DNA from: Balamuthia mandrillaris
Lineage: Eukaryota
Reading direction: 5' to 3'
DNA: 57,360 nucleotides
Assembly (NCBI GenBank): GCA_031835245.2
Contig: JAVKOQ020000031.1
Coordinates: forward strand, 248,001-305,360
Part shown: piece by piece, positions 3,774 through 15,672 of the stretch
Layout: each line of letters begins with the position of its first letter
Position numbering within the stretch: the first letter of the stretch is position 1
Made by a program: the position numbers and the translations under genes
Notes under the pieces: model-generated
Told to the model about the DNA's origin: nothing
The model's input: the letters and a program-made list of their open reading frames with translations, nothing else
Database searches by the model: none

Positions 3774-5861
3774 CTATTGCGTAATCTCAGATCTGTTCTA
3801 ATAACAAAAAAAAGACCTTATGTAGGACGCTTTCTGTTGTAAGTAAGACAACAGCGGGAGATCTGGTAAAGGAATTACCACCGTTACAAGCATCTTCCGC
3901 GACCAACGCCAATGCCAACGGAAGCGGCGGCGGTGGAATGTTTTCCCGTTTCTTTGGCGGCCTATTTGGGTCCACTCCTCCAGAACAACCTTCTCTTCCA
4001 GAGTGCGTTGCTCCTTGCAATACTTTTCTTTCAATCTTTCCTTCTTGTCGGTGACATATTTATTCGCAACATCCTCTCTTTCTCTCTCTCTCTCTTCTCT
4101 CTCTCTAGCTGTATCTCATTATGCTCTCTCATTCTTCTCCTCAAATAGATATTCTTTTGCAGCAAATACATTGTTAATAGAAGGACTTGCTACTCTTCGT
4201 AACATTGCATCTCTTCCTGTATTACTTGCTGCTCATTGCATTACCTCTGATGCAACCACTTCAATCCCTTGCTCATCCACAACCTCAGCAACAGCTTCAT
4301 CCTTTGAACCCTCTCTTCTTTCTCATCAACTGTTACAAGAATTTTTTGCGCTTTCCAGCTTTTTGTTGCTCTGCCCAAAGAAAACGAAAGAGTCTCTGCC
4401 CTCAACCAATATTTTCTACGCTTTATCGGATGGAGGAGCTCTTTGTCTGCGCGTTTGGGCCAGTATATGCCGTGACCAACGCGCTCTTTTGCTTTTGGAT
4501 GAGGTGGAATGTCCCATCAATGCTCCTCTCTATCAAAAGGTTCTTCCGTTTTGCTTTCTTTCTCGTTTCTTGTCCGTTGTTTGTTTCTTTCTAGATGTTA
4601 CTTTCTTTCATTTCTGATTGATGCCATCTGGACGAATAAACATGCGCAGATGATAAGCAGCACAGCAGCAGCACGTTTTGCGTCTAAGAAACCAATTGCA
4701 ACCACGATGAGCAAACCAGCACCGATGCGACAGGCCTTGTTGGAAGTTCTTGTTCACTTTTTGAAGCGAAACATGCGAAAGCAATTGCCCAACGGAATGT
4801 ATGGAGAAGCTCTGGACGCTGTATATCTCATTGCTCGTCATATGTTGCTCCATCGCTATCGTCGTTTATCTACTTCTTCGAGTAATGATAAAGAAGGGAG
4901 TGGAGAAGCTGAAAAGGAAGAACGGCAAAAGGAACAACACGATGCAACAACGGCAAATATTGAGAAGAAAGAGGAGGAAGAAGAGCAAAAGTGGGACTGG
5001 GCAGTACTGTGGAAAGCTCTAATTGCACTGATGAAGTTCCTTCCATCTCGCTCTCATCATCATCAACAAATTGAGTTGCATGAAGAGGAACAGTCAAACG
5101 AAAAAGAAGAACGAGAAAAGGAAGAGCAACAGCTCATTGCGCGAATAACTTCTCTCTGGAACTTGTTCATTATGACAGGACAGGCCGATCTTTTTTCCAG
5201 GCATGAAACAACGAAAGAGGATGAAGAAGTTAAAGAAGAAGGCAAAGATAAAGAGAACAGCAATCAACAAGCCGAAGAAGACAAGGTAAAAGAAGATACA
5301 CGGATATTAACGAGTAAGAGCGATCAAAGAGAGAATTTGGAGAAGCGCAACGACACCATGTACGATAAACTTGTATATCACATCATTCACAACGCACAAA
5401 TCTTTCAACTCTTTATCGAATGGGGTTTGTATCTTTTTTCTCTCATCTTTCCTCCTCTCTTCTCACTTTACCAACCCTTTCTTTTTCGTTCCCAAAAACA
5501 AGTTTCGCAAGAAGAGGCAAGTTTAGGATGGAAGTTGGACAATCTCTCCAACATAGTTCTCCACTTCACCCAAAAGATAAACGAGTGGTATGCTCATCAT
5601 CCAGAAGATACGCTTCAAACCCCAGAGCAAGTGATGGATCTTCTTCGACAACATTATCACTCTTCTCCTCGACTTGACCTCTCTTATGTGAATACCGAGG
5701 CAGAAGAAGGAGAGGCGAAAGCTATAAGCAACGACGAAGAAGGACGGAAGGAGCGGATTGTGAAGTGGATGATGCAAACCTTCAGGCTGCGTATCTCCGA
5801 GGATACTTTTGAATGCATCAAGTCGCCTCGTTTACTTGACCAACAACAAGAAGCAAGTTAG
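2330..5861 (+). CDS. ARMH3: ARMH3/C10orf76 (UPF0668)-like armadillo-helical protein, multi-exon
   Basis: N-terminus MASGKVVAGRRSGESKPALKEKFVDIYERLFE, then FWSELFLLKVNAAFL..L..LSLR/ENVSAIFARACE, matching the C10orf76 N-terminal pattern (KKPLKEK...FWEELFL.KVN). Exons separated by GT-AG pyrimidine-rich introns; last exon ends at TAG 5861. Internal exon borders not all resolved. Confidence 0.8.
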
Positions 5862-7796: not shown

Positions 7797-9489
7797 CTAA
7801 CAAACCAAACAGTTGGAGCTTCCATCCTGTGCCTCCTCGCTTGCTTCCCCGTTGCCCTCCTTCCCTTTGGGAGGCCTGAAGCCAAGAAACTCATCCACGA
7901 AACGAATCCAACAAACGGGGAAGGCCTCCAGAGGATCCTCCTTCAGCTCCTCCACGATGCGAAACTCAAAGGGGCCGTTCATGAAGCGCTCCCTGTCCTC
8001 ACGCCAGCTGAAGAGGCTCGCCCCTGCTCCGTTGTGAAATGGATTCTTTCAGGAGAGAACATTCAGAAAGAAAGATAAGTATCAGTGGTTCAGAAAAGAA
8101 GCAAAGAGAAAGTTAGCAAACCAGTTCAATGATTTTAACATCATTGTTCTTGGTTACATAAAAGTCAATAACTGCAGTTGGAGTAATATGAGTGTGCGAG
8201 TAGAAAGAGAGCGAACAGAGAGAGAGAAGAATGAACACGGACCATAATTTTCATGATCGATGTTGTGTTTAATGGACTCGAAGAACTGCAGAATGATCTG
8301 TTGTAGCTCATCCTTTCTCTCTATCAGATCGTCATCTTTTACAGGACGACTCATCATTAGCTTAAATATGAGAGAGAGAGAGAGAGAGAGAGAGAAAGAT
8401 AACGTTGCACTTACATTTACAGCAAGAAAAATATTGTGTCTGTTGGAGAACGACAGTTTTGTTTAATAAACACACAGGAGAACGATGAGCGAGAGTTCGA
8501 GAAGAAAGAAGAGAGAGGGTGAGAGGAGAGAGGGAGAGAACGAGACAGACAGAGAGAGAGAGAGAGAGAGAGTGGGAGAGATGTACCATTGCATTAAGCT
8601 GATTTGAGTGCACAAAGCAACGAAACTCATACTGGTTATCATTGCGAAGACGAATAAGAACGAGCTAAAAGAGAAGAAGAAGAAGGAAAGCCAAACCTGC
8701 GGTCGTTCAGGAACTTCATCCCACCACTCACGGAGGATGAGTTTGGTGGTCCAAGCAAAGTGGCGGTAGGGCAGTGCTCGTACCAAGTCCTCCTTCACTC
8801 GGTCGCTTCGTATCAACAACTGAAGGGAAGAATGAAATGTTGTAAACACGCAAGCGAAACTAAATGAGAGAGAGAAAGAGAGAGAGAGGAGGCCTTCAAT
8901 GTACATTTAATGCCTCTTCTCCGTTTGTCACTTTCATAAAACGATTTGTTCCTCTAATGTTCAAACTTATTGTTAGACAAGGCTGTAGCCAACAGGAGAA
9001 CAGAAGCCAGAGAGAGAGAGAGAGAGAGAGAGATGAACAAAAATAAAAGAGGAAAAAAAGGAGAAGGCTCGAAAGAAAAGATGCATACATGATAATGGCA
9101 TTGGCTAGCATGTTGGTATCCCTTACAGATGGCTGCTTGTCCGGATACAGACGCTCTAGCTCGTCGCGAATGAGCTGCTGCACCGCCTCGTTCTCAAAGT
9201 CGTATACCGGAACGTCTTTTGGCGAGCGCGTGTCCTTTTCCATGAAAATAAGAACCGACAACAACCAACAATGGACAACAAAGAAGCAAAGAAGCAAAGA
9301 CGAAAGATGAAACAAGATAGAAGCCTAGAAAAGAAGGACATGACAAGAAGCGACCACAAAGAAGAACGGAACGCAAACCAATTTGATGAATGCTCCGCCA
9401 GGAAACTCCGTTTCCAACAGAGAATGAAGCCTCTCTCTTAACTGCCTCCAAAAAATATGTTAAAAAAGTTGATCTCATCCTAAAACAAC

Positions 9490-9532
<43 letters not shown>

Positions 9533-9729
9533 TAGGTACGTCGTCGAGCAGCTGTCTTCCTCCTTCATCCAGGCGTGACCGTCGCCCGTCCACAATGGCC
9601 TCCGCTTCCTCCACCGAAAGAGGGACGGACAAGGTATGAAACGTATGGTCTTGCAACGCCTCGTACCACGTTTCTATTCCAAAACTTTATTGTTCCAACA
9701 AAAAGGTATCAAAAGATAGGTTTTCACGA

Positions 9730-9762
<33 letters not shown>

Positions 9763-10022
9763 CTACCAGGACGTGTAGTGCTTCCTTCGAAACAGCTCGA
9801 CGTCACAAGCGCGTACGCCCAATGCTTTGATCTCTTCATCTATATAGTTTGAAAAGAATGACAAAACGGACCATTATTATTTTTAAAAAAAATCATCATG
9901 GTGTTGGACAGACCGCTTAATAGAAACTTGCTGGTATATCTTTTTGTCTGGGTCCCTTCTGTTGCTTCTTGTTCCGACTGCTGCTCCGTCTTCTCCTTCT
10001 CTTTCTGCCTTGGCTCTTCCAT
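7797..10022 (-). CDS. Cdc123-like ATP-grasp (D123/R2K clade) protein, multi-exon
   Basis: Motifs in order across exons: DTRSPKD, LIRSDRVKEDL, KLILREWW...PQ/YEFRCFVHSNQLNA..TQYF, NPFHNGAGASLFSW. These match the Cdc123 family SPKD / S.R+..DL / L.LR.W..EFRCFV / NPF...LFSW pattern. Start taken at MEEPRQKE (10022), uncertain. Confidence 0.75.
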
Positions 10023-10350
10023 TTCTCTTTTTTTCTGTTTCCGATCTTCCCCGACCACGTCGTCACGAAACCACTCTGGATAACAGAAACGAGCCGAATA
10101 CGTTATCTAAGTTGCCTTATGTAAGAGCGAAAATAAGGTTGGACAATTTTTTGACACAGGGCAGACACCTCAAGGTTAAGAGAAAAAGAAACACCTGTGT
10201 TCCCTTCGTGACGACGTGAATATTAGAAACAAAAAGAAAAAAAAAAGGAGAAAAGAAAAAGAGTTTGTTTGCAGCCGATGAGCCGCTACTCCGAACAGCG
10301 GTAACTTTAGAGAACAGCGGAGGGGGAGGAGGGAAAATACATAATACGAG

Positions 10351-13300
10351 ATGATGCGTATCCGAATGCTGCCCATGAGGGCAATGGAGCAGAATCCCTG
10401 CCTTCCGCGGATCTTTTCAAGATTAACCCGCCGGCACCTCCCCGCAGCCACCCCTGCTACTGCTACCACCATGTCCACGGCCTTCTCCCTCCCTCCTCAT
10501 CGACGCAACTACTACTTGGCGACTCCGTTTCGCAGGCAGCAAAGGGCTGCCACAGGGAGCGGAGGAAGCGCACAGGCGGCGGAGGGGTTGCAAACGGACA
10601 ACAACAAGAAGAGGAGGAGAGAGTATTCACAGCAGCTGCAGGCGCTGGCGCAAGAAGGGGGCCGCCTTCAAGGAAGAGCGCTCCTTACCACGTTGCAGGA
10701 GATGGAAAGGTTGGAGGTGATGGCGGAGGAGAAGGCCTACATGGAGCTGCTGAAGCGCTGCGGGAAGGAGAGGGCGCTGGAGGCGAGCCAACGCGTGCAC
10801 GCGCACCTCCTCTCCTTCCTCTCTGCCTCTCGCCCGGTGCTTTGCTCTCGCCTCTCTACCTGCCTGATCAGCGCCTATGGCAACTGCGGCAGGGTGGACT
10901 ACGCCCGTGAGGTGTTTGAGCAAATGGGGGAGCACGACGCGGTGGCATGGAACGCGATGATACAAGCCTTCACGCAGTGCGGACATGGGAAGGAGGCGGT
11001 GGAAGTTTTCCAGCGGATGCAGCGGGCAGGCGTGACGCCAAACCTCTTTACCTACACCAATGTCCTCAAGGCGTGCGCAAGTGCGAAGGATTTGGAGACG
11101 GGGAAGCAGGTGCATGCTAAGCTTATTCGTGGTGGGTTCCCACAGGACGCCGTCCTGTCAACTACTCTCATCCGCATGTACAGCCAGTGCGGAAGGATGG
11201 ATGAGGCTCGCGCCATCTTCCAGGGAATGAAGAACCGTGACGCATATACGTGGAACTCCATGATCGCGGAGGAAGCGCAGTCTGGGCGCGGAAAGAAAGC
11301 CCTTGAGGTCTTTCAACAAATGCAGCAGGCAGGCGTGCCGCCTGACTCGTTTACCTACACTAGTGCACTCAAGGCATGCGCAGTAGCTGAGGATTTGGAG
11401 ATGGGGAAGCACGCGCATGCTCAGCTCCTTCAGCGTGGCCCCTTAAGCATCCCTAATTCGAACGCCCTGATCAGCATGTATGGCAAGTGTGGACGGATGG
11501 AAGAAGCACGTGCCGTATTCTCGGGAATGAAGCAGCGAGACACGGTGACCTGGAGTTCTATTATCACGGAGGAGACGCGTCATGGGCACGCGAAGGAGGC
11601 ACTGGAGCTGTTCGGCCAGATGGAACAGGCAGGAGTGTCACCGGACCCCTTTACTTTCACCAGTGTACTCAAGGCTTGTGGGAGCATTGCAGACTTGGAG
11701 ACGGGTAAACGTGTGCACGCACAGCTTCTCCGCCGTGGCTTACTTCCCAACGTCCGTCTGTCAACCGCCCTGATCAGCATGTATGGCAAGTGCGGAAGGA
11801 TGGACAAGGCACGCGCAGTGTTCCAGCGAATGAAGCGACGAGATGTGGTGGCGTGGAACTCGATGATTGCGGAGGAAATACAATGTGGTCATGCAAAGGA
11901 AGCCCTTCTGCTCTTTCAACAAATGCAACAGGCGCGTGTGCCACCCGACTCCTTGACCTACACAAGTGTCCTCCAGGCGTGCGCAACAACTAAGAACTTG
12001 GAGCTAGGCAAACGAGTGCACGCTCAGTTCCTCCGCCGTGGCTCCTTGTCCCTCTCCGAGTCAAATGCCCTAATTAACATGTACGGCAAGTGCGGGAGGA
12101 TTGATGAGGCAGGCGCTGTATTCAAGGCGATGAAGAAGCGCAACGTGGCATCGTGGACTGCCATGATCCAAGCCTGCACGCAGTGTGGTCATGAGAAAGA
12201 AGCCCTTGAGTTGCTCCAGCAAATGCAACAGGCAGGCATGCAACCAGACCCACCGATCTACGCCATTATATTAAAGGCATGTGGAAGCATGAAAGACTTA
12301 GAGACAGGCAAGCAAGTGCATGCTCAACTCCTTCACCAAGGCCTCCTACCGGATGTTATGTTATCTACCGCCTTGATCAGCATGTATGGCAAGTGTGGGA
12401 GGATTGATGAGGCACGTGCTGTATTCACCGCGATGAAGGAGCGCAACGTGGTGACGTGGACCTCGATGATTGTGGCAGAAATACAGTGCGGAAATGGAAA
12501 GGAGGCACTGGAGCTCTTCCAACAGATGCAACAGGCAGGAGTGTCTCCAAACTCCTTTACCTACACCAGTGTACTCAAGGCTTGTGGGAGCATTGCAGAC
12601 TTGGAGACGGGCAAACAGGTGCATGCACAGCTCCTCCATCATGGCTCCTTGAACCTTCCTGAGTCAAATGCCCTGATCAACATGTACGGCAAATGTGGAC
12701 AGGTTGGCGACGCACGCGCTGTGTTCCTGGGAATGAAGCAACGGAACGTGTTGACATGGACCTCTATGGTAGCGGTGCATGGTATGCATGGACAAGGCAG
12801 AGAAGCACTGGCTGCATTTGAAGAAATGCAACAGCAAGGTCTGCAGCCAAATGACATCACCTTTATCAACGTTCTCAATGCATGCAGCCACACTGGGCTA
12901 GTAGAGGAAGGCCTTGCCTGTTTTGCTGCCATGAAAGAGAAGCATGGTATACAGCCCACAGTGGACCATTACAATTGTGTGGTGGACATGTTGGGTCGAG
13001 CAGGAAGACTGGACGAGGCGGAGGCACTGATCGACACAATGGTGGAGGTGCCTCCCGATGCGGTGACGTGGATGGCCTTGCTGGGGGCATGCGGCAGGCT
13101 CAAAGATGTGGAGCGAGCACAACGAGCAGCAGAGCGGGCTGTAGAGTTGGGTGCACAGGATGCTTCTCCGTTTGTGATTCTGTCCAACATCTACGCAGCA
13201 GCGGGGCGAGAGGAGGATGCGAAGAGAGTTCAGAACAAGATGGCAGAATGTGGTGTGAAATCGGAGGCAGGCAGGAGCTGGATAACGGTGAACGGCCAGA

Positions 13301-13677
13301 TGCACAGCTTCCTGGCCAGGGACCGCAGTCATCCCCGTAGCAAGGAGATCTACAAGGAGTTGGCCAGGCTGAACCAACGGATAAAGGCAGCGGGTTACAA
13401 GCCAGACACAGACTGGACGCTGCCTGCCGCATCGAAGGAGCCAAAGGAAATGGGGTTGGCTCACCACAGCGACAACTTGGCTGTTGCTTTTGGGCTGCTC
13501 GCCACGCCACCCGGCGAGCCACTGCGCATCATCACGACCCTTTGGCTATCCGGAGACAGCCACACGGCCGCCAAGTATATCGCCAAGGTGACGCAGCGAG
13601 AGATCTTGGTAAGGGACGTCAATCGCTTTCACCACTTTAGCCCCAATCTCACCTGCTCCTGTGGCGATCGCTGGTGA
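10351..13677 (+). CDS. PLS-class pentatricopeptide repeat protein with E1-E2-DYW extension (ends DRW), degenerate deaminase site, probable mitochondrial presequence; intronless
   Basis: 1108-aa uninterrupted ORF with about 23 PPR motifs (L,S,[PLS]x6,P2L2S2), E1 (AVTWMALLGAC), E2 (FVILSNIYAAAG), PG-box-like GRSWI, SHPRSKEIY, AGYKPDT, REILVRDVNRFHHF and CSCGDRW. Arg/Ser/Thr-rich, acid-poor N-terminus. True start may be one of several Met codons at 10351-10471. Confidence 0.97.
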   Translation: MMRIRMLPMRAMEQNPCLPRIFSRLTRRHLPAATPATATTMSTAFSLPPHRRNYYLATPFRRQQRAATGSGGSAQAAEGLQTDNNKKRRREYSQQLQALAQEGGRLQGRALLTTLQEMERLEVMAEEKAYMELLKRCGKERALEASQRVHAHLLSFLSASRPVLCSRLSTCLISAYGNCGRVDYAREVFEQMGEHDAVAWNAMIQAFTQCGHGKEAVEVFQRMQRAGVTPNLFTYTNVLKACASAKDLETGKQVHAKLIRGGFPQDAVLSTTLIRMYSQCGRMDEARAIFQGMKNRDAYTWNSMIAEEAQSGRGKKALEVFQQMQQAGVPPDSFTYTSALKACAVAEDLEMGKHAHAQLLQRGPLSIPNSNALISMYGKCGRMEEARAVFSGMKQRDTVTWSSIITEETRHGHAKEALELFGQMEQAGVSPDPFTFTSVLKACGSIADLETGKRVHAQLLRRGLLPNVRLSTALISMYGKCGRMDKARAVFQRMKRRDVVAWNSMIAEEIQCGHAKEALLLFQQMQQARVPPDSLTYTSVLQACATTKNLELGKRVHAQFLRRGSLSLSESNALINMYGKCGRIDEAGAVFKAMKKRNVASWTAMIQACTQCGHEKEALELLQQMQQAGMQPDPPIYAIILKACGSMKDLETGKQVHAQLLHQGLLPDVMLSTALISMYGKCGRIDEARAVFTAMKERNVVTWTSMIVAEIQCGNGKEALELFQQMQQAGVSPNSFTYTSVLKACGSIADLETGKQVHAQLLHHGSLNLPESNALINMYGKCGQVGDARAVFLGMKQRNVLTWTSMVAVHGMHGQGREALAAFEEMQQQGLQPNDITFINVLNACSHTGLVEEGLACFAAMKEKHGIQPTVDHYNCVVDMLGRAGRLDEAEALIDTMVEVPPDAVTWMALLGACGRLKDVERAQRAAERAVELGAQDASPFVILSNIYAAAGREEDAKRVQNKMAECGVKSEAGRSWITVNGQMHSFLARDRSHPRSKEIYKELARLNQRIKAAGYKPDTDWTLPAASKEPKEMGLAHHSDNLAVAFGLLATPPGEPLRIITTLWLSGDSHTAAKYIAKVTQREILVRDVNRFHHFSPNLTCSCGDRW

Positions 13678-13878
13678 GAAGCATGTCATATAGAGTACGT
13701 GTAATATCCTCTTCCTTTATGCAAAAAAAAAAAAATAACGGTAAATAAAATAGGCGCCGCCGCCGTAGTAAATAAAAATAAAACCTATAGTAACATTGTT
13801 CGTCACAAAACACAAAAACAAAAACAAAAAGCAAAAGCAAAAAAACAAAATAAAAATATAAAACATAGAAAATGAAGG

Positions 13879-13905
13879 TTAGGGTTTTAGGTTAGGGTTA
13901 GGGTT
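13879..13905 (+). repeat. Short interstitial telomere-type (TTAGGG)n tract
   Basis: TTAGGG TTTTAGG TTAGGG TTAGGG TT read directly. Confidence 0.75.
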
Positions 13906-14087
13906 GAGATGCTGACGTGGCCCAAAGCCAGGAGAGTGGACGTGAGAGACGTGAGGGAAGGGAGAGAGAAGACAAACAAGAAGAGAAGATTTAAAAAAAG
14001 AGGTAGCGAGAGACAAGCAAGCAAAGGGGCCACGGCTAGCTTTCTTCGATTAAGCGTTGGTGGGTTTTTTTTTTTTTTTTTGAAAGG

Positions 14088-15672
14088 ATGGTGGTGAGTG
14101 GACGGGCTTTGTTGGGATGGCACGCGTTGGTTTTACTCGTGCTGGCGTTCTCTGTGGTGGCACATGCACACGCCGTGAACTTGCGTGGCGTCGATCCCAA
14201 GAGTAAGCGTTGCCCCTACTTTTTTTTTTAAGAATGTCTTGGTCTTTCTCTTTCGTCGTTTTTTCCTCACACCCATCTTTCATTCATTTTTAGATTTGAA
14301 AGACTATGAAGGAGAAACGTTTAGTTGCAAGAGCGACGGAAAAGTGTTGCCCATCTCGCGAGTGAACGATGACTTTTGTGACTGTGCGGATGGCAGCGAC
14401 GAGCCTGGCACCAGCGCGTGTCCCAATGGCCAATTTTACTGTCGCAACAAGCACCACCAGCCAAAGCTGCTCTTCTCCTCTCGTGTCAACGATGGCCTCT
14501 GTGGTGCGCTTTCTACCTCTTTCTTCTCTAAGGGCTCTTCTCTTGTCTGTTCTTCTTCGCTGCTTCTCTTCTTTTTCCTCCCTCCATCTCTCATCTCCAC
14601 TTTTTTTGTTCTCTTCTCTTTCGATATTCCTCGCTTCTCTGTTGCATCGTTTCCTTGTGGTGAGCAGACTGCTGTGATGGGAGCGACGAGTTCGACGGAC
14701 GAACTACTTGTCCTAATACGTGCAAAGAGGAGGGCGCTGGGGCTCGCCTGGAGAAGCAGCAAAGAGTGGAGCTCCTCACAAAGGTGAGTGCAAAGGCGTT
14801 ATACATTTCGTTCGGTTGTAACCGTTGCATTTATGCTTTCATTAAAATAGGGATTGGAGTTGAAGAGAGCCATGCTGCAAGAGGCAGAGGGAGTGTTGCA
14901 AGAGAAGCAAAGGAAGGCTGCTGCTCTGCAGCAAGAGCTGTATGATTTGGAGACTCAACAAAAAGAGCTACAGGGTTCTCTATTTTTCTGAAGCCATTTT
15001 GTTGCTCGTTCTTTTTGCGCTCATTTTATTCTTCTAACATGAACAACAGAGAAAATCGTTGAAGCAAAGACTAAAAAAGACGAGGCTAACGCTCTACTGA
15101 AAAAGTATCGTGAAGAAGGCTACGCCTTGGAGGGAGAAGACGAACAACCCTGGGAGGAGCTCAAAGCTCGGCGCTATCGCCATAACGAGGATGATGACGA
15201 CGACGATGAAAGCGAACACGCAGAAGAAAAGGAGAAAGAAACGGAGGGCGAGCAACCACTAGCGGAGAATGAAGGTGGGGAGCAACCACCAGAGGAACCG
15301 CCCAAGCCCCAACTTTCAGAAGAACAAAAGCAAGAAGTTGCTCAGGCCAAACAAAACATTGCAGATGCGGATAAACTCATCAATGAAGAAAGGGCCATGA
15401 AGCATAAGGTCAAAGAGAAGACAAAGGAAGTCGAGGAGAATGCCTTGAATGCTGACTTTGGTATGTTGCTTTGAGCGCCCATGGGCTCCTTCTTGTTGTT
15501 CTTCGTCTTTCTCTCCTCTCCTCCCTTCTCACTCACTCAATTTTTAGGACCTGGCAACGTCTTTTTGCCGCTGCACGGTAAGCCCTTGAGCATCACGACC
15601 GCTCAATACACCTACACCGTCACTCCCTTTGTGGATGCCAAACAAGGATCCACTTCTTTAGGGTTCGTTCTC

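Follow-up and report, generated by a model that had tools for sequence, protein, structure and literature searches.

A plant-type PPR-DYW protein of Balamuthia mandrillaris with a lost editing site and a maintained PPR array: a candidate non-editing RNA-binding factor

What does a plant-type RNA editing protein do in an amoeba when the residues required for editing are gone? The question is raised by an open reading frame in a stretch of 57,360 nucleotides of Balamuthia mandrillaris DNA (the whole stretch analysed, hereafter the window). The single-exon gene at 10351–13677 on the plus strand encodes a PLS-class PPR-E1-E2-DYW protein of 1108 amino acids, with no stop or frameshift across the 1108 codons, and Pfam recognises in it PPR repeats, E, E+ and a DYW_deaminase domain of full length (profile positions 1–93 of 93). 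By motif parsing, the array is laid out as six L-S-P triplets followed by L-S-P2-L2-S2. The parts of the gene are:

10351..10590, plus strand: presequence-like region (composition; disordered in the structure model)
10729..13059, plus strand: PPR array of 23 motifs (motif parsing)
13060..13161, plus strand: E1 motif, with the basic residue 12 changed from Arg to Gly (codon 13093)
13162..13263, plus strand: E2 motif, with Arg24 changed to Gln (13231) and the last Lys to Ser (13261); Asn9 retained
13264..13674, plus strand: DYW domain, with a PG-box-like start and the C-terminal end DRW; fold predicted to be retained
13423..13425, plus strand: Pro in place of a His of the gating region, a residue in contact with the RNA U-turn (alignment with the available parts of PMC13324415)
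13465..13473, plus strand: HxE motif, here H-S-D, the catalytic Glu being replaced by Asp (13471)
13540..13563, plus strand: L-R-x-C-x-x-C-H, here L-W-L-S-G-D-S-H, with Ser at 13549 and 13558
13630..13662, plus strand: retained His and Cys-x-Cys assigned to the second zinc site, the structural one (alignment)

The His and Cys-x-Cys of the last feature we take to be ligands of the structural zinc site, following the assignment in the OTP86 structure. Across 13540..13563 the interface Arg and both Cys of the active-site zinc are gone, and the stacking Leu and the next His are retained. A dead catalytic site had been claimed in the first-pass annotation, and it is real: HSD stands in place of HSE and SGDS in place of CGDC. 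The protein has a (P-L-S)n array with terminal P2-L2-S2, canonical code residues in its P and S motifs and the E1/E2/DYW fold. It lacks the features of a PLS-class editor that lie in the Glu of HxE, the zinc ligands of CxxC and the E1, E2 and gating contacts to RNA positions −1 to +2. With non-editing DYW-class PPR proteins it shares a divergent DYW domain combined with an array under purifying selection. Its first 70 residues contain 12 R/K, one D/E and 12 S/T and include an amphipathic stretch (composition, hydrophobic moment), and the N-terminus is predicted to be a mitochondrial presequence; the N-termini of the Balamuthia paralogs are likewise basic.

The residues were placed on the consensus PPR-DYW/RNA structure, as described in the available parts of PMC13324415, by way of protein P0123. 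Changed here and retained in 12 of 12 Balamuthia paralogs are R418 (to Gly), R464 (to Gln), K474 (to Ser), H528 (to Pro), E544 (to Asp), R568 (to Trp) and C570 and C573 (both to Ser). According to the same parts of that paper, E544 is catalytic, C570 and C573 are zinc ligands, R568 lies at an interface, and R418, R464, K474 and H528 contact the RNA near the edited base. The equivalent of Y609 is likewise changed. H351, R387, V408, N449, H542, S543, L567, H574, R591, R595, F596, H598 and the terminal Cys-x-Cys are retained. Both E544A and E544Q abolish editing (PMC13324415), and Asp at E544 is not among the mutants described in the parts of that work at hand. The losses are targeted, taking the catalytic Glu, the active-site Cys pair and four RNA contacts near the edited base. 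The gene presents a clean natural dissection of an RNA editor, in which the editing residues (those of the 2026 crystal structure, as partly available) were lost together and the residues for upstream recognition stay.

The protein shares its architecture, its code positions and its predicted DYW fold with the land-plant type represented by OTP86 (7o4e/7o4f) and the consensus PPR-DYW protein (9kfx/9kfy); the match to 9kfx has an E value of 9e-83 when sequences are compared and of 1e-41 when folds are. It departs from land-plant editors in the loss of the catalytic Glu, the two Cys of the active site, one Arg at an interface and four RNA contacts near the edited base, and in its host, an amoeba. 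A structure model computed with AlphaFold2 from 24 sequences (mean pLDDT 83.5; with no metal or RNA, and so silent on binding) retains the DYW fold, with 9kfx as best structural match. The E1/E2 losses were set against a control of 271 non-Balamuthia proteins, 11 without alignable E motifs being set aside. At least two of the three E1/E2 basic residues are missing in 0 of 237 DYW-intact proteins and in 4 of 18 E/E+-like proteins, a set that includes truncated gene models; here all three are missing.

The gene belongs to a family. In three protein searches the closest named relatives were B. mandrillaris proteins, with 62–67% identity over the parts searched, and the next came from mosses, liverworts, lycophytes and gymnosperms. 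We found 13 other Balamuthia clusters, 12 with E-DYW and one (P0013) that is a long array without E or DYW. All 12 E-DYW clusters (range P0003–P0122) have HxE and CxxC intact; they are not independent, several being near-copies, and represent about eight lineages. GenBank already annotates the Balamuthia paralogs as PPR/DYW. No description of a Balamuthia PPR-DYW family or of RNA editing was found in the literature covered, which did not include most subscription papers or the 2013 survey of non-plant DYW proteins; PMC4202320 mentions Balamuthia in its reference list only, and PPR/DYW terms were absent from the one PMC10471605 supplement searched and from the main text of PMC13632651. The 12 intact paralogs predict C-to-U editing in Balamuthia mitochondria, of which none was found in print.

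Other protists offer parallels. DYW-type PPR counts of 11 in Naegleria, 12 in Acrasis and 16 in Physarum are given, and Acanthamoeba is listed as a carrier, in the available parts of PMC4202320 and PMC4758236; for Amoebozoa, one DYW domain is counted in the part of PMC13386178 at hand. The likeness to these families lies in plant-like PPR-DYW genes that occur in non-plants and are expanded by lineage. Unlike in the present protein, the zinc ligands of Physarum and Naegleria are reported as conserved (PMC4758236, accessible part). A tree of 45 proteins, built from the C-terminal 310 residues, unites all 13 Balamuthia proteins that carry a DYW domain in one group (100/100); in it the terminal branch of the present protein is the longest (0.32 vs ≤0.15). 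The deeper placement of this clade among plants is unsupported and no donor can be assigned. P0005 and P0061 have near-identical C-termini, yet differ by three PLS triplets. We also observed dozens of intact PPR-DYW proteins (P0007, P0024, P0056, P0083 and related) on long ENA contigs, mostly labelled PF07166; the seven of them included in the tree form a separate group (100/100).

In the PPR code T or S with D reads G, T or S with N reads A, ND reads U and NN reads C or U; the table is reportedly that of Barkan 2012 and Yagi 2013. Motif parsing recovered, in 15 of 15 S, P and S2 motifs, the 5th/last pairs that the first-pass annotation had listed (TD, NN, TD, ND, ND, SD, TD, ND, NN, TD, TN, TN, NN, TN, ND), and the 22-nt pattern GYnGUnUGnGUnYGnAAnYAnU had been correctly derived from them. 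Its placing of the edited position 4 nt after the S2-aligned base agrees with S2 reading −4 in the available parts of PMC13324415. It had further argued that full retention of the code shows specific RNA binding to be still selected, and here the conclusion for the array stands on other grounds than the argument. Full retention by itself proves little because the family normally has a fully canonical code: in the 12 paralogs with intact catalytic motifs 120 of 133 S/P motifs are canonical, and 109 of 109 without the first S and the first P. Fifteen canonical pairs out of 15 are thus far beyond chance in a random protein, yet ordinary within the family. The one code feature special to this protein is its canonical first S motif (0/12 paralogs). 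In the same stretch of the array (10846–12654), Thr stands at position 5 in five of six inner L motifs, against 2 of 49 in the paralogs (hand count).

What argues for selection on the array is the asymmetry of decay, the age of the repeats, pN/pS and transcription. The asymmetry was scored as departures at columns that are near-invariant among the 12 paralogs. They are most frequent in the catalytic and gating core (16/42, against 0–3 in the paralogs), followed by E1/E2 (9/42, against 0–4). In the flanking parts of the DYW domain they number 4/30 and 4/31, in P2-L2-S2 5/60 (0–7 in the paralogs), in the array framework 8/159 and at the code residues 0/30. Of the single-base changes at code codons that are nonsynonymous, about 74% would destroy the code. 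The probability of finding 0 of 30 code residues broken is about 5e-5 at the core rate, 0.006 at the E1/E2 rate and 0.15 at the P2-L2-S2 rate; the first value is approximate, since selection for loss may have raised the rate at which the core changed. The array is constrained, and its code residues are not statistically separable from the repeat scaffold (P ~0.15). The triplets are 63–76% identical in pairs, with dS of 0.76–2.9 and dN/dS of 0.08–0.31 in 14 of 15 pairs, one pair being saturated. Since the internal repeats are this old, the code has not been preserved by recency. A recent tandem duplication behind the tidy code was considered and rejected, dS being near saturation and the longest exact repeat 48 nt.

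Strain comparison points the same way. Between the contigs of run X3 and the ORF in the window, 20 substitutions are among those listed, 14 synonymous and 6 nonsynonymous, none of them at code or lesion codons; the indel within the ORF is an in-frame 3-base insertion at the N-terminus. With one unlisted difference counted as nonsynonymous, pN/pS is 0.13–0.17 (binomial p up to 2.5e-4), from one pair, window against X3, and 20 changes. The gene is under purifying selection. Within the ORF, 17 of the 20 substitutions lie in the first 1.3 kb, and the 48-nt exact repeat links 11658 with 12564; the clustering and the repeat may reflect recombination or gene conversion.

An assembly error as source of the dead site was rejected, an X6 contig covering 11712–13754 having 0 differences. 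The X3 contig over 12582–13931 has four, three of which are listed, none of those three at lesion codons. One X6 contig alone has a 347-base skip inside the repeats, probably an artefact of the repeats themselves. Of two RNA runs, X16 was sampled at about 3% and X17 at about 5% of its reads, and 91 and 120 reads respectively fall on 9000–15500. Depth across the ORF, the DYW part included, is roughly 0–3 per mate orientation. Spliced joints occur in both neighbour genes and no intron-type joint inside the ORF. The gene is intact and transcribed. Upstream of it, RNA coverage has a gap at 10085–10301.

On balance we lean towards the view that the protein is a former editor, now a sequence-specific, non-editing RNA-binding factor of the mitochondria that acts by occupancy. 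A member of the plant-like PPR-DYW family of Balamuthia type would have lost the residues required for C-to-U editing. Its presequence would direct import into mitochondria, where the array would bind one site resembling the 22-nt pattern, probably with some mismatches. Occupancy of that site on polycistronic mitochondrial RNA would most likely protect or define a transcript end or, at a translation start region, aid translation, and the dead DYW domain, still folded, would serve structurally to cap the array. The preference among end protection, translation and splicing is guesswork based on how the genome is laid out. According to the parts of PMC10196457 and PMC4665321 available, the Balamuthia mitochondrial genome has 40–43 kb and 35% GC with all annotated genes on one strand, and its introns, LAGLIDADG-type with the cox1 one of group IB, vary by strain and are absent in V039. 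Since these introns are dispensable to some strains, a splicing role is less likely.

Non-editing DYW proteins already have a plant precedent. As described in the available parts of PMC9459714 and PMC3858427, PpPPR_43 of the moss Physcomitrium is a mitochondrial DYW-class protein with a divergent DYW domain that does not edit and is needed for splicing of cox1 intron 3. The Balamuthia protein resembles it in carrying a divergent DYW domain among editing-competent siblings. The 23-motif layout is identical too, but the editor PpPPR_45 also has it (PMC9459714, in part). The origins would be separate, the Balamuthia genes forming their own clade in a tree that does not include PpPPR_43, and the moss target is a group II intron, unlike the introns described from Balamuthia. 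If a mitochondrial target were found, the plant PPR code would be at work in an amoebozoan, with an editor repurposed independently of the moss.

For a 42-kb genome of 35% GC, the 22-nt pattern is expected by chance 0.0003 times without mismatch, 0.014 times with up to one, 0.27 with up to two and 3.2 with up to three; if ND also reads C, the figures are 0.07 for up to one and 1.2 for up to two mismatches. To beat chance in mitochondrial DNA of 42 kb, a match must have at most one mismatch, or two if conserved between strains, two being marginal. A scan of the nuclear transcriptome would be uninformative: if its size is taken as 30 Mb, chance alone should yield about eight matches with up to one mismatch. 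The window itself gave 2 matches with up to three mismatches against 6.4 expected, which says little. Read as codons in three frames the pattern is too loose for naming a gene, the Rfam search of the window returned no RNA family, and published mitochondrial rps3 and 16S primers had 0 matches in the metagenome, viral and genome contigs.

Other readings have to be weighed against occupancy. The protein could be a guide for editing in trans, marking a site at which the C is deaminated by a DYW paralog that is intact; plant E/E+ proteins work in this way with DYW2 or MEF8. Like these plant PLS proteins, it would recognise a site and leave the catalysis to others; there are 12 paralogs whose catalytic motifs are intact, and the orientation residues H351 and R387 of P2-L2-S2 (placed on the accessible part of the consensus structure paper) and the PG-box region are retained. 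We nevertheless consider it unlikely. Of the basic residues with which E1 and E2 hold the RNA near the edited base, all three are gone, whereas 14 of the 18 E/E+-like proteins, truncated gene models among them, keep at least two. Moreover, the DYW domain is absent or truncated in E/E+ guides and of full length here, and a full-size dead DYW would probably fill the docking place.

Improbable, too, is a target outside mitochondria, in cytosolic, nuclear, viral or endosymbiont RNA. Acrasis and Naegleria have 12 and 11 DYW genes for two known editing sites each, and cytoplasmic roles have been suggested (PMC4202320, in its available parts). The presequence-like N-terminus and the similarly basic N-termini of the paralogs speak for mitochondria, however, and the below-expectation count of pattern matches in the window adds little on either side.

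We regard it as quite doubtful that the protein is a shield, which by binding a site would prevent active paralogs from editing it or would modulate how they do so. The base-contacting residues H542, S543 and L567 (assigned from the available parts of the structure paper) remain in place, and the changes at the catalytic site are conservative ones (Glu to Asp, Cys to Ser twice), as though shape had been spared while activity was removed. Yet the protein has lost the backbone contacts by which RNA is steered into the pocket, and the C-terminal part of the code string is, by eye, common to no paralog. It would likewise be a long shot to propose an unreported plant-type mitochondrial C-to-U system of about 12 PPR-DYW enzymes, in which this protein would be a disarmed member gating its siblings' access to sites.

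A dispensable duplicate in slow decay, its array held by weak or recently ended selection, would fit the longest branch in the clade, the low read depth and the many paralogs. It is very unlikely in view of 1108 codons free of stops and frameshifts despite 16/42 core changes, a pN/pS of about 0.15 and the in-frame indel in X3. That the altered pocket has gained new chemistry, such as the RNA cleavage proposed for CRR2-type DYW domains, is barely credible: some DYW proteins act in RNA cleavage and His, Asp and two Ser are left at the pocket, but the reported nuclease activity depended on CxxCH (PMC9459714, PMC3858427, both as partly available), which is lost here.

Ordinary eukaryotic genes surround it. 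Among 56 ORFs scanned, those in window positions 4500–57000 include ARMH3, PRKCSH, a proteasome subunit, RhoGAP/RhoGEF/WD40, importin alpha, BEACH and kinesin, and none gave a further PPR match; the PPR gene is the sole open frame above 460 codons in the window. Head to head with it lies a spliced minus-strand gene at 9000–10080, with CT..AC joints at 9233/9378 and 9839/9914 and a piece (9197–9673) that has no Pfam match. Retroelement-like fragments occur at 11–1520, with SH3_retrovirus and RVT_2 matches in two different frames, and a short run of TTAGGG-like repeats at 13877–13905 lies in the interval that separates the PPR gene from the one for glucosidase II beta.
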